From Candidatus Cloacimonadota bacterium (GTDB lineage Bacteria; Cloacimonadota; Cloacimonadia; JGIOTU-2): DNA of 64,000 nt. The stretch is taken from positions 128,001 through 192,000 of the forward strand of contig JBNGBT010000003.1 in the NCBI GenBank assembly GCA_049903315.1, given 5' to 3'. The first letter of the stretch is position 1. Each line of letters begins with the position of its first letter. A program made the position numbers and the translations under genes. The notes beneath the pieces are model-generated. The model worked only from the letters and a program-made list of their open reading frames with translations, was not told the DNA's origin and did not search any database. Shown here in pieces: positions 43,843 to 51,235 of the stretch.

Positions 43843-46095
43843 TCATTGATCCATTTTAAATGAATCAATAACTGCGTTAAACGTTGCGCTTGGACGCATT
43901 GCTTTTGTGGTTTTTACATCATCTGGTTTGTAATATCCACCCAGATCAATTGGCTTTCCTTGTGCTTTAATAAATTCTTTAACTATTTCGGATTCATTTT
44001 CTTTAAGTTCTTTTGCAAGCTTAGCGAACCGTCTTTGAAGTTCCGGATCCTTGGTTTGATTTTTTAAAGCTTCTGCCCAGTACATTGCAAGATAGAAGTG
44101 GCTTCCTCTATTGTCCAATTCATTTACTTTTCTTGAGGGCGATCTTCTATTGATAAGAAATGTTTCAGTAGCTTGCTCAAGAGTTTCTGCCAGGATATGA
44201 GCTTTCACATTTTTTGTTTTTGCACTCAGGTGTTCAAGGGATGCTGCAAGAGCGAGAAATTCCCCAAGAGAATCCCATCTTAGATGGTTTTCTTCTGTGA
44301 ACTGCTGTACATGTTTTGGAGCAGAACCGCCAGCTCCAGTCTCAAACAATCCCCCACCACTCATAAGCGGTACAATTGAAAGCATTTTTGCACTGGTGCC
44401 AACCTCAAGGATAGGGAACAGATCTGTAAGATAATCTCGTAAAACATTTCCTGTAACAGAGATAGTATCTTTTCCTTCTTTCATACGCTTGATGGAGTAG
44501 CGAGTAGCTTCGATTGGTGTCATAATATGGATTTCAAGTCCTTCAGTATCATGATCTTTCAGATATTCATTAACTTTTTTGATAAGTTCACGATCGTGAG
44601 CTCTGTAATTATTCAGCCAGAATACAGCAGGGGCTCCGGTTTTTCTAGCTCTTTCTACAGCAAGTTTCACCCAATCTCGAATAGGGAGATCTTTTACCTG
44701 ACACATACGCCAGATATCACCTTCTTCAACTATATGCTCTATCATTGTCTGGCCTGATGATGAAACGACACGGATTTTGCCGTCACCCGGGCATAAAAAG
44801 GTTTTATCATGAGAACCATATTCTTCTGCTTTTTGCGCCATTAAGCCAACATTTGAGATGTCACCCATTGTGGCTGGATCAAAAGCACCATTTATCCTGC
44901 AGAATTCCATTACCTCTTTGTAGACATTTGCATAATTACTATCTGGAATAAAAAACCTTGTATCATGAAGTTTCCCATCTGGTCCCCACATTTTACCTGA
45001 ATTACGAATTGCAGCCGGCATTGATGCATCGATTATTATGTCACTTGGTACATGGAGATTTGTTATTCCTTTTTTCGAATCTACCATTGCTAATTTTGGT
45101 CTATTTTGATAACATGCATTAATGTCTTCTTCTATCTCTTTTTGCTTTTCCTTTGGGAGCGCTTTAATTTTTTCGTATAGATCACCAAGACCGTTACTGG
45201 GAACTACTTCGAGTTCAGCAAATGTGTCGGCATGCTTTTCGAAAACTTCTTTGAAAAAAACAGAGACAACATGTCCAAAAATGATGGGATCAGAAACTTT
45301 CATCATAGTAGCTTTCAGTTGCACAGAAAACAGCACATCTTCTTTTTTCGCATCTTCGATCAATCCTTCTAGAAATTTTATAAGAGCTCGTTTACTCATC
45401 ACTGTTCCATCAATTATCTCGCCTTCAGTGAGAGTTAACTTGTCTTTAAGAATAGTTACTTTTCCTTCAGGATTAACAAATTTGATTTGGCAGTCGCCGA
45501 CATTTTCCTTAGTGATTGTTTTAGATTTTTCATTAGAGGCAAGATCACCAGTGGTCATAAAATTAACATGAGATTTAGATTCAGGAGACCATTTTCCCAT
45601 TGGATGAGGATTTTTTTTTGCATAGTTTTTAACAGGTGTAGGAACTCTGCGATCTGAATTACCTTCCCTCAAAACAGGGTTAACAGCGCTTCCTTTGATC
45701 TTATCATACCTTGCTTTGATTTTCCTCTCCTCATCATCTTTCGGTTCATCGGGATAGCTGGGTATATTGTAACCCTTCTCCTGTAATTCCTTTATTGCTC
45801 CCTTTAATTGAGGAATTGAAGCACTGATGCAGGGTAATTTTATAACATTAGCTTCCGGTTTTTTTACAAGCTTACCTAATTCTACAAGATCATCAGATAA
45901 TTTTTGATCATCAGTAAGTTTTTCGGGAAAGTTTGCAATGATCCTGCCTGCAAGAGAAATGTCTCTTGTTTCGATTACAACTCCTGCTTCATCTGTAAAG
46001 GCCTTAATGATTGGCAATAAAGAGTATGTTGCTAATGTAGGAGCTTCATCAACTTTAGTATAAATTATCGTTTCTGACTTATTTTTATCACTCAT
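43843..46095 (-). CDS. icd: Monomeric NADP-dependent isocitrate dehydrogenase
   Basis: [56 protein letters not shown]; 750 aa. Confidence 0.96.
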
Positions 46096-46106
46096 TTTAT
46101 TTCTCC

Positions 46107-49246: not shown

Positions 49247-49273
49247 ATTATATCCTCTCTATAATTGCCTATT

Positions 49274-51235
49274 TTATTCTTTAATGTTAGTCTGCTTTTT
49301 TTTTATTAATGCAAGGGTTCCACCTGCAAGCAGAATTTCTTTTTGTCGATCAGACAGATCATACGTTGTTTCAAACTCTGTTCCTTTTGATACGTTCTTA
49401 ACAATTATGTTCTTACCTTCTCGTAATGTTTCTTTTATATTTGGAATTTCAAGTTCATCCGCTTGTTCTATTTCATTGTAATCATCTTCATTTTTGAAAT
49501 TTAACGGAAGTATGCCAAAATTGATGAGGTTTGCATTGTGAATTCTTTCCATAGACTTTGCAATAACAGCTTTCACTCCCATATACATCGGGCAAAGTGC
49601 GGCATGTTCACGGCTGCTTCCCTGACCATATGAAAGTCCTGCAACAATAATATTATCTTTTCCGTTTTCTTTGATTTCTTGTGCGCGATCATGAAATGTA
49701 GGATCAACTACTTCAAACAAAAATTCAGAATATTTTGGGATGTTTGATCGATACTTCATTTTCGACCCGGCAGGTATTATGTGATCTGTTGTGATCAGGT
49801 CTCCTACTTTCAAAGTTACAACACCGGATATTTTATCTTTAAGTGGTTCTGCTGCTGGAGGATCGCCAATATTTGGGCCACGATAAATCCCCATCTCTCC
49901 CTTAATTGATTCAGGGAAAATGAACATGGAGTCATCAATATAAAATTTGTCCGGCATTTTAATTCTAGGATATTCAATTTCTATTTTCTCAAGATCTCTC
50001 GGGTCTGTAAATTTGCCTGTAATTACAGCGGCTGCTGCAGTTTCAGGACTCACCAGATATACATCTGCAGATTTTGTTCCTGATCTTCCAAAGAAGTTTC
50101 TGTTACTTGTTCTAAGTGATACTGCGCCTGTTTTAGGAGATTGACTGTTACCAATACAGAAACCACACGCAGATTCTGCGATTCTTGCGCCTGCCGAAAC
50201 AATGCTTTCAAAACCACCATCATGTATGATATTTTCAATTACCTGTTTTGAACCGGGTGCTACTACAAAGCTTGTATCTTTACTTAGTTTTTGATCCTTT
50301 AAGATATTTGCTACAGTCATCATATCTTTGTAAGAAGAATTAGTACAACTTCCTATACAGACTTGATCAACATTAATCTCACCGATATCTTTTACAGTGC
50401 TGATATTTCCGGGACTATGTGGAGTTGCTGCCATTGGAACAAGCTCGGAAAGATCTATATCAACAACTTTATCATATTCTGCATCATCATCAGCGACTAG
50501 TTCCAGCCAGTCATCTTCACGGTCTTGGGCTTTTAAGAATTCTTTTGTGACTTCATCACTCGGGAAAATTGATGTTGTTACTCCGCATTCAGCCCCCATG
50601 TTTGTGATCGTCGCTCTTTCGGGAACGGATAGTGTGCTTACTCCAGGTCCACCATATTCAAATATACAACCCACATTTCCTTTAGTTGTAAATATTTCAA
50701 GAACTTTTAGTATTATATCTTTTGCTGCAATCCAAGGATTTAGTTTTCCCATTAAATTTATTTTTATAATCTTTGGATAAGTTATATAGAATGGACCGCC
50801 AGCCATTGCCACTGCCACATCAAGACCTCCGGCACCGATTGCCATCATTCCGATCCCACCTCCGGTCGGAGTATGCGAATCTGAACCAAGAAGAGTTTTG
50901 CCAGGTTTGCCAAATCTTTCAAGCTGAACCTGGTGGCAGATTCCGTTCCCAGCCCTGGAATAAACGATTCCATATTTTGCTGCAACAGATTGAAGGTATT
51001 TATGATCATCTGCATTTTCAAAACCGATTTGAACAGTGTTATGATCAACATAACTTACAGAAAGATCGGTTTTCACTTTTGGAACACCCATCGCTTCAAA
51101 TTGCAAATAAGCCATAGTACCGGTAGCATCTTGTGTAAGTGTTTGATCGATCCTGATACCTATTTCAGTACCTTTTTCTGGCTTTCCTTCGATAATGTGA
51201 TTTGATAAGATTTTTTCTACTATGTTTTTTCCCAT
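49274..51235 (-). CDS. acn: Aconitate hydratase (short ~650 aa type)
   Basis: TQDATG, DHN, GICHQ, GSDSHT, IGSCTN, ACGFCIG, TSNRNF, ITTDHI, YGQGSSREHA. Confidence 0.93.
   Translation of the reverse strand: MGKNIVEKILSNHIIEGKPEKGTEIGIRIDQTLTQDATGTMAYLQFEAMGVPKVKTDLSVSYVDHNTVQIGFENADDHKYLQSVAAKYGIVYSRAGNGICHQVQLERFGKPGKTLLGSDSHTPTGGGIGMMAIGAGGLDVAVAMAGGPFYITYPKIIKINLMGKLNPWIAAKDIILKVLEIFTTKGNVGCIFEYGGPGVSTLSVPERATITNMGAECGVTTSIFPSDEVTKEFLKAQDREDDWLELVADDDAEYDKVVDIDLSELVPMAATPHSPGNISTVKDIGEINVDQVCIGSCTNSSYKDMMTVANILKDQKLSKDTSFVVAPGSKQVIENIIHDGGFESIVSAGARIAESACGFCIGNSQSPKTGAVSLRTSNRNFFGRSGTKSADVYLVSPETAAAAVITGKFTDPRDLEKIEIEYPRIKMPDKFYIDDSMFIFPESIKGEMGIYRGPNIGDPPAAEPLKDKISGVVTLKVGDLITTDHIIPAGSKMKYRSNIPKYSEFLFEVVDPTFHDRAQEIKENGKDNIIVAGLSYGQGSSREHAALCPMYMGVKAVIAKSMERIHNANLINFGILPLNFKNEDDYNEIEQADELEIPNIKETLREGKNIIVKNVSKGTEFETTYDLSDRQKEILLAGGTLALIKKKQTNIKE

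Follow-up and report, generated by a model that had tools for sequence, protein, structure and literature searches.

The 64,000-nucleotide stretch analysed here (the window; positions 128,001 to 192,000 of contig JBNGBT010000003.1 from the Cloacimonadota assembly GCA_049903315.1) carries on its minus strand an acn-aclB-aclA-icd operon, whose products are predicted by family to be an aconitase, an ATP-citrate lyase (ACL) and an NADP-isocitrate dehydrogenase (IDH). We tentatively favour, with somewhat less than even confidence, the view that this cassette works reductively, as an electron sink that also supplies part of the carbon, in an amino-acid-requiring peptide fermenter, and not in autotrophy. 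Such a reductive or mixotrophic use would narrowly take precedence over ATP-yielding citrate synthesis by the same enzymes, the direction of flux being read from the genes. The ACL operon has already been published for the host genus and is hence not a discovery; what our analysis adds is the case against autotrophy and a swap between ACL and citrate synthase among relatives.

An ATP-citrate lyase operon with a recurring gene order

The four long open reading frames (ORFs) of the operon span window positions 43843-51235 (Table 1), with 27 nt between acn and aclB, a 1-nt overlap of aclB and aclA (TAATG) and 11 nt between aclA and icd. The original prediction had described four linked genes with these junctions and with intact ACL motifs, all of which was reproduced, and its statement that the window holds no further tricarboxylic acid (TCA) cycle genes was likewise borne out, the remaining TCA enzymes being located outside the window. 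Searches by regular expression revealed the motifs DHN, DSH, SCTN, CxxC and SSRE in the aconitase. Nine ACL motifs were found in the same way in AclA (QFGHAG at 270, ADHG at 411, GIGHR at 485 and LNVDG at 536) and AclB (KPDQL at 60, AGGGAS at 283, NYGEYSG at 306, IANFT at 349 and RRGGPN at 383), and were conserved in 29-32 of 32 aligned homologues. As in heteromeric AclAB enzymes, one subunit combined an ATP-grasp with a citrate-binding domain, while the other fused a CoA-binding/phospho-His domain to a citryl-CoA lyase domain with its His and Asp motifs.

Among solved structures, AclA was closest to the enzyme of Methanosaeta concilii (6HXI_B/6ZNW_B, 805 bits), followed by human ACLY (765) and 6HXJ_B (414), and AclB to 6HXI_A (514 bits; human ACLY 388, 6HXJ 165). 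Of 13 loci labelled Cloacimonadota, 11 showed the full acn-aclB-aclA-icd order and two ended at contig edges; of 13 labelled Thermoplasmata, five showed it, seven more were cut by contig ends but agreed in order as far as visible, and one (L036) held aclBA only. This recurrence across both sets of loci indicates that the order is not due to chance.

The host genus and what has been published on it

The host genome (G000; 2.96 Mb, 38.5% GC, 96.4% complete, 0.33% contaminated) most likely belongs to Ca. Celaenobacter (Cloacimonadota), as judged by single-protein identities to Ca. Celaenobacter antarcticus of 88-94%, which equalled or exceeded those to congeners in GTDB. Its pyruvate phosphate dikinase (PPDK), for instance, was 93% identical to that of Ca. 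C. antarcticus, 88% to that of a GTDB congener and 73% to that of another genus of the family, and the AclB relatives at 80-95% identity were Cloacimonadota, including Ca. C. antarcticus at 88%. The original prediction had called the host an apparent member of the Fibrobacterota-Chlorobiota-Bacteroidota (FCB) group, in agreement with the NCBI taxonomy.

According to the accessible part of Williams et al. (2021, PMC8542988), ACL of Ca. Celaenobacter is clustered with aconitase and IDH; a second cluster holds thiol:fumarate reductase (Tfr), 2-oxoglutarate oxidoreductase (OGOR), fumarase, succinyl-CoA synthetase (SCS), Mvh and Hdr; citrate synthase is lacking; and an H2-driven reductive TCA (rTCA) cycle was deduced, the organisms being termed facultative chemolithoautotrophs. 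Both the cluster and its rTCA reading were thus in print for this lineage, which overturns the suggestion in the original prediction that rTCA carbon fixation had gone unrecognised here. Our host displayed the same two clusters in the same order at 88-94% identity and likewise no citrate synthase, the only difference found in gene content being a type-2 malate dehydrogenase (MDH) in our host; relative to the available text of PMC8542988 it is the reading that differs, since we find auxotrophies where autotrophy was deduced, a 'thiol:fumarate reductase' without a thiol domain, and no ComA.

ACL in metagenome-assembled genomes (MAGs) of Thermoplasmatota has been interpreted as rTCA (Garritano et al. 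2022, PMC9802188; PMC11287216), and rTCA genes are described as not widespread in the phylum Cloacimonadota (PMC12590816), in each case going by the portions of these papers at hand. The corresponding portions of PMC9560492, 10.1101/2022.10.25.513756 and 10.64898/2026.09.02.748891 leave Cloacimonadota unmentioned. In the literature covered, which did not extend to subscription papers, we found no auxotrophy-based challenge to autotrophy of Ca. Celaenobacter and no report of a synthase/ACL swap. The NCBI records name AclA of Ca. C. antarcticus and Ca. Stygibacter frigidus (P0011, P0031) 'citrate/2-methylcitrate synthase', and this naming may explain the 'citrate synthase' of two Celaenobacter MAGs in the accessible part of PMC12590816.

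A second operon holds the remaining steps of the cycle

A second operon (G000:C33:91859-108073, locus L039) was located on the same contig, 64 kb from icd and outside the window, with the order sucC-sucD-fumA-fumB-korD-korA-korB-korG-hdrC-hdrB-hdrA-mvhD-tfrB-tfrA-mvhG-mvhA; a GxxExxY gene is inserted in it. The host genome contained the rTCA gene set of ACL, aconitase, IDH, 2-oxoglutarate:ferredoxin oxidoreductase (KOR), SCS, fumarate reductase, fumarase and pyruvate:ferredoxin oxidoreductase (POR), with the specificity of KOR suggested by its operon context and by an OGOR-delta match of 77 bits, below the cut-off of 125. Also present were phosphoenolpyruvate carboxykinase (PEPCK), PPDK, malic enzyme (nearest structure 3NV9), methylmalonyl-CoA mutase, Rnf, two glutamate dehydrogenases (GDHs), one of them NADP-specific and above its cut-off, and two complexes with group-4-hydrogenase-like subunits.

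The sole Citrate_synt match in the host genome, in contrast to a true Si-citrate synthase, was the C-terminus of AclA, and the sole HMGL-like protein, rather than a Re-citrate synthase or LeuA, was a biotin-dependent carboxyltransferase of 639 aa, which neighbours an MmdA-like subunit of 518 aa. An NAD-MDH of the LDH/MDH family (PF00056) was absent from the genome. A type-2 (Ldh_2, PF02615) MDH candidate was present, with MDHs (1V9N, 3I0P) as nearest structures; it is located at G000:C44:58642-59742 (L065), within a polysaccharide-synthesis cluster, and has a GC content at third codon positions (GC3) of 0.23. Because of this candidate and the malic enzyme, the reductive cycle would be closable in the host, where each step has a candidate gene on paper. 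The argument that the cycle cannot close for want of MDH was dropped for this genome and stands only for five of eight ACL carriers. The search of the whole genome that had been proposed originally thus recovered kor, a frd-like pair, fum, sucCD, por and a type-2 MDH candidate, and, as neither Si- nor Re-citrate synthase was found, the option that ACL replaces citrate synthase loses nothing to a second enzyme of that function.

Fumarate reduction probably runs one way

The best NCBIfam match of TfrA was TfrA PRK06263 (327 bits, below the cut-off of 718). The protein retained all seven catalytic positions checked against E. coli FrdA (H232, T244, E245, R248, R287, H355 and R390) and was without the Glu121 of NadB. 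In all 24 TfrA homologues (22 from Cloacimonadota, two archaeal), Asn replaced the His that binds FAD covalently in E. coli FrdA (His44), and where FAD is bound non-covalently, the oxidation of succinate is lost, as stated in the accessible part of PMC2680327. Together, this suggests that the succinate step is likely one-way and reductive, and the missing His argues against a full oxidative cycle.

TfrB (228 aa) carried Fer4 domains only, and a CCG motif was found in none of 23 TfrB homologues (201-260 aa). A B subunit with a thiol-oxidising CCG domain is a feature of the methanogen thiol:fumarate reductase, with which the host enzyme shares a flavoprotein with fumarate-reductase residues and non-covalent FAD, but from which it differs in the lack of this domain. 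ComA was found in none of five genomes. The host TfrAB looks like a soluble fumarate reductase that departs from the methanogen enzyme in its thiol domain. By analogy with the proposal for the kor-tfr-hdr cluster of PMC6315080, MvhAGD-HdrABC might hand electrons directly to TfrAB, making G000:C33:91859-108073 a candidate for a soluble H2:fumarate/ferredoxin bifurcating complex. One archaeon (G004) contained both the ACL cassette and the Tfr module.

Missing amino acid synthesis

When 47 E. coli proteins, chiefly of amino acid synthesis, were used as references, 28 had no phmmer or tblastn match in the host genome, among them leuA, ilvI, ilvC, ilvD, hisG, hisB, hisD, hisI, argB and argC as well as trpA, trpB, trpC, trpE, pheA, tyrA, aroF, dapA, lysA, thrC and gltB. 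The same held for seven of 24 further references, including proB, proA and aroC. The other 19 of the 47 were matched, many of them weakly or by paralogues and strongly in the case of leuB/leuC-like, hisH/hisF, aroB and gltD-like genes. The LeuB/LeuC/LeuD-like genes were rejected as a route to leucine, being dispersed and lacking LeuA.

Beyond the host, IlvD was found in none of eight ACL carriers and in six of the 131 genomes of the phylum Cloacimonadota that underlie our distribution counts, all six from one other family. HisD was absent from all 12 ACL-positive and all seven synthase-positive Cloacimonadota tested and present in one of five archaeal carriers and in both autotroph controls. 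AroC was missing from six of six tested genomes of the host family and present in nine of nine of the sister family, so its loss is not general. Supplementary Table 3 of Williams et al., as far as the supplement of PMC8542988 was accessible, leaves the rows of IlvB/C/D, LeuA, HisG/B/D, ArgB/C/G/H, TrpAB and ProAB empty for each of the 10 MAGs, and lists Mdh in only two of the 10.

Divergent or non-homologous enzymes could mask one missing step, but hardly so many. The host thus does not appear able to make every amino acid out of central metabolites, as expected of an rTCA autotroph, and because so many of these pathways are missing, autotrophy seems very unlikely on such gene contents. The caution in the original prediction that acl is no proof of autotrophy is well supported by these missing pathways.

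An accessory cassette, swapped for citrate synthase in sister genomes

Among the 131 genomes, AclB was found in eight, TfrA in 32, true Si-citrate synthase in 13 and PF00056 MDH in seven; monomeric IDH occurred in 10, being the eight AclB genomes and two partial matches. Six of the eight ACL carriers had TfrA. G116 was the sole possible negative, as G058 was rejected as an ACL-positive genome without tfrA, its contig stopping right after mvhD. The seven synthase carriers in the two relevant families were exactly the seven with PF00056 MDH, and in five of these seven sister genomes fum, mdh or mvh genes shared a stretch with the synthase module. In G131 (L076 3921-18560, L077 1-15822), L078-L083 and L085, hdr-tfr-mvh-suc-fum genes are joined to two MDHs and a LarA-family racemase, and likewise to aconitase, dimeric IDH, a citrate synthase of eukaryote type and a transcarboxylase-like pair; these loci are candidates for a reversed oxidative TCA cycle or a branched propionate fermentation.

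The cassette is accessory: it is present in eight of 131 genomes, and its site is empty in a congener. In relatives, the flanks are joined without the block at 43735-51509. Contigs from the RNA run X1, which covers both clusters, join 43734 to 51510 and 43698 to 51527 (word share 0.05; contigs only, from relatives mostly at 80-95% identity, and used only for these joints, being no guide to expression rank or habitat). In the congener G066, the 5TM and TAXI genes that flank the cassette are directly adjacent (L133), and a more distant copy of the cassette is found elsewhere in the genome.

In trees of AclB plus AclA, rooted on Sulfurovaceae or on Sulfurovaceae plus Desulfurobacteriaceae and built without any 6HXJ-type, Nitrospira or Desulfobacter sequence, Cloacimonadota formed one clade (support 100) nested among Thermoplasmata. 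An approximately unbiased (AU) test rejected uniting four Thermoplasmata rows (p = 0.012; 14 rows, LG+G4, group picked after seeing the tree), and in a quick tree Krumholzibacteriota and unnamed proteins fell in the same wider ACL group. Close archaeal loci shared 67-85% identity with the cassette and the same gene order. Facing the archaeal copies are genes for a regulator and an AMP-forming acetyl-CoA synthetase, together with fumAB. An archaeal donor for the cassette is likely but not proved. A locus labelled Woesearchaeota (L009 1-5188) carries aclB-aclA-icd 96-98% identical to the window and groups with our host; it was rejected as a Woesearchaeota carrier, probably being mis-binned, and was excluded from the counts.

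Proposed mechanism and direction of flux

In the proposed reductive mode, MvhAGD-HdrABC would bifurcate electrons of H2 directly to TfrAB (fumarate) and ferredoxin, and KOR would use that ferredoxin to carboxylate succinyl-CoA. The cassette would then convert 2-oxoglutarate, CO2 and NADPH to citrate and cleave this C6 product to acetyl-CoA and oxaloacetate at the cost of one ATP, the ATP being supplied by fermentation of amino acids and sugars. A peptide fermenter could in this way dump the electrons of amino acid oxidation on CO2 and would gain acetyl-CoA and oxaloacetate as products. The cassette would likely have come later than the H2-fumarate module to which it was added, its donor being Thermoplasmata-like, and as the enzymes are reversible, the cell may switch direction.

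We favour reductive use because a single operon holds the ferredoxin-reducing complex together with KOR, SCS, fumarase and the one-way reductase, and because ACL favours cleavage at ordinary pools. In calculations with -8 kJ/mol (Table 1 of PMC13147460, from the accessible part of that paper) and assumed concentrations, citrate synthesis by ACL was favourable in only three of 12 settings, all with oxaloacetate of at least 0.1 mM and low citrate. Bifurcation from H2 to fumarate became favourable once H2 exceeded about 0.01-3 Pa, likewise with assumed pools. A further-reaching version, which we consider doubtful, is that rTCA serves as a CO2-reducing electron sink amounting to acetogenesis without the Wood-Ljungdahl pathway, driven by an MvhAGD-HdrABC-FrdAB complex that is soluble and needs neither quinone nor thiol, with the sister genomes running their eukaryote-type citrate synthase backwards.

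Several observations count against reductive use. Apart from the pools being assumptions and the flux being predicted from gene content, 26 of the 32 TfrA-positive genomes are without ACL, 19 of them with neither ACL nor synthase, and within the two families TfrA and ACL are not associated (Fisher p = 1). PF00056 NAD-MDH was found in none of the eight ACL-positive genomes, and type-2 MDH, present in 98 of 131 genomes, in only three of the eight, leaving five without either family; the type-2 candidate of the host was found in none of the other 11 sampled genomes of its family. With MDH so rare among them, most carriers would need a detour over PEPCK or malic enzyme. In seven sister genomes, the cassette is replaced by gltA-acn-(x)-icd, in which the synthase is of eukaryote type and the IDH dimeric, and among five archaeal carriers of unknown completeness a Frd-like flavoprotein occurred in two and SucD in one.

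Because of the exchange for a synthase, the lack of MDHs and the setting of the archaeal copies, a close rival, and a quite conceivable one if short of even confidence, is that ACL acts as citrate synthase and forms citrate and ATP from acetyl-CoA and oxaloacetate. Aconitase and IDH would then yield 2-oxoglutarate and NADPH, and KOR and SCS succinate, with electrons passing to the one-way fumarate reductase in a branched fermentation rather than a cycle. Si-citrate synthase was indeed absent from eight of eight ACL-positive genomes, no Re-synthase/LeuA was found in the host, while 11 of 12 ACL-positive genomes gave either no match or just the ~640-aa biotin protein, gltA-acn-(x)-icd is the equivalent module in the seven sister genomes, and the five carriers without either MDH family could let oxaloacetate stay high. 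Also consistent with this direction are the AMP-forming acetyl-CoA synthetase adjoining the archaeal copies, the origin of the nearest solved enzyme in Methanosaeta concilii and the aclBA-icd locus of Syntrophoarchaeum. Desulfobacter postgatei reportedly offers a precedent, an ATP-forming ACL in its citric acid cycle, going by the title of a 1987 study by Moller et al. Citrate synthesis requires high oxaloacetate and very low citrate, though, and 2-oxoglutarate is already obtainable from glutamate through the two GDHs or from the reductive branch; the host has its type-2 MDH candidate, and in the relatives with a synthase the cycle might be running in reverse as well. Mutual exclusivity of ACL and Si-synthase was not retained as an argument, as the zero overlap is not significant (p = 0.14) and related genomes are not independent.

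Glutamate-fed reductive carboxylation, in which NADP-GDH gives 2-oxoglutarate and NADPH and the cassette, independently of tfr, makes acetyl-CoA and oxaloacetate for lipids and sugars, seems unlikely as the main role of the cassette. It would fit with the NADP-specific GDH, with the lack of a methylaspartate route (GlmE in none of nine ACL-positive genomes), with a computed sum of about -3 kJ/mol for the three steps at 1 mM, and with fatty-acid synthesis genes that lack a biotin carboxylase and stand beside a transcarboxylase-like pair able to use oxaloacetate. Yet KOR and SCS give 2-oxoglutarate an ATP-yielding fate, acetyl-CoA and oxaloacetate are cheaper to obtain from pyruvate and aspartate, and the neighbouring TAXI gene, rejected as the cassette's importer of glutamate or 2-oxoglutarate, lies outside the cassette and flanks the empty site too. 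H2-driven chemolithoautotrophy by rTCA, as published for Ca. Celaenobacter, could point to the complete gene set and a group-3c hydrogenase cluster, and is stated in the accessible part of PMC8542988. It is highly improbable to us and largely refuted by gene content, as the routes to Leu, Ile, Val, His, Arg, Pro, Trp, Phe, Tyr, Lys and Thr appear broken or absent, with which the accessible Williams table agrees. By our accounting, a two-ATP cycle would also have no net energy source on H2 and CO2 alone. Scarcely to be expected, finally, is that the cycle runs oxidatively in full to oxidise acetate in syntrophy, the succinate step proceeding via reversed Tfr-Hdr-Mvh: all enzymes are reversible in principle and the host has a homologue of AMP-forming acetyl-CoA synthetase, but TfrA is without the covalent-FAD His throughout, and the computed equilibrium H2 pressure for this direction is at most 3 Pa.

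Comparison with known systems

The closest solved relative of the host enzyme, the ACL of Methanothrix (Methanosaeta) concilii (6HXI/6ZNW), is likewise of the two-subunit, eukaryote-like type, whereas the host enzyme is bacterial and its genes share their operon with those of aconitase and monomeric IDH. The tubeworm symbionts and Thioflavicoccus mobilis, in the accessible part of Rubin-Blum et al. (2019, PMC6315080), share acl, acn, idh, a four-subunit kor and tfrAB interspersed with hdrABC, for which direct electron bifurcation was proposed; they differ in having Flx (NADH) instead of Mvh (H2) and mdh in the cluster, and in being true autotrophs. The rTCA1 of Thermoplasmatota resembles our case in that ACL was read as rTCA, and the available portions of PMC9802188 and PMC11287216 mention neither Cloacimonadota nor a shared cassette. 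Desulfobacter postgatei, again by title, resembles the host in that ACL would be an ATP-yielding citrate synthase, but it oxidises acetate completely with sulfate, while the succinate step of the host is likely one-way reductive.

Neighbouring features and other loci

Table 1. Positions of the cassette genes and adjoining features in the window.
Feature	Position	Strand	Description
acn	49274-51235	-	aconitate hydratase, 653 aa; first gene of the operon; PRK07229 949 bits (cut-off 612)
aclB	47954-49246	-	ATP-grasp/citrate-binding subunit, 430 aa; PF16114 Citrate_bind and PF24948
aclA	46107-47954	-	CoA-binding/phospho-His/citryl-CoA lyase subunit, 615 aa; CoA-binding, Ligase_CoA and C-terminal Citrate_synt
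icd	43843-46095	-	monomeric NADP-isocitrate dehydrogenase, 750 aa; TIGR00178 1269 bits (cut-off 950); PF03971
Short hairpin	51242-51256	-	overlaps the acn ribosome-binding site; similar in L003, L011 and L015
Accessory block	43735-51509		flanks joined without the block in relatives
TAXI-family TRAP solute-binding protein	42754-43749	-	TIGR02122; flanks the cassette, outside it; present at the empty site
5TM-5TMR_LYT membrane protein	51511-52182	-	PF07694; flanks the cassette, outside it; present at the empty site

The stem of the hairpin upstream of acn is altered yet still complementary in L006. A similar hairpin 3′ of icd was not conserved in relatives, and promoter-like sites were not enriched over shuffled sequences (20 vs 26.9). 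The icd gene is only 78% identical to the L011 copy (10150-12402), while the other cassette genes of L011 are 95-98% identical, which suggests recombination within the cassette. The GC3 of the cassette (0.26-0.27) is at the 7th-10th percentile of 1782 genes. Codon bias was rejected as a guide to flux direction: the four genes stood at the 73rd-96th percentile of ribosomal-like usage, but this is confounded by their low GC3.

An ADP-forming acetate-CoA ligase (window 2572-5283; TIGR02717 above cut-off) is the likely outlet for acetyl-CoA. At G000:C3:75230-77973 (L136 9231-11971), a CitD/E-like fusion and CitF-like genes were found, with no match to CitC or CitG; these are candidates for a second, ATP-independent system that cleaves citrate or citramalate beside ACL. 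A biotin-dependent carboxyltransferase pair without biotin carboxylase lies at G000:C11:14185-18284 (L104), and fatty-acid synthesis genes occur in the genome; malonyl-CoA may thus be made from oxaloacetate by transcarboxylation. On either side of the cassette, ORF translations suggest two clusters of genes for STAS anti-anti-sigma, RsbW-like and SpoIIE-like phosphatase proteins together with periplasmic binding proteins (window 34169-40398 and 53425-55834), and nearby lies a PIN-like domain protein (PF18476) at 40752-41837.

Implications

Cloacimonadota and Thermoplasmatota carriers of ACL have been counted as autotrophs, and this cassette provides a clear test case: a genome with aclAB and a full rTCA set but without about ten amino acid syntheses should not count as an autotroph in marker-gene surveys. 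With ACL and monomeric IDH in some genomes and citrate synthase and dimeric IDH in others, set on the same H2-fumarate module, the direction of flux is testable with a few purified enzymes. If rTCA does act as a CO2-reducing electron sink, a peptide fermenter would be freed from its H2-scavenging partner.

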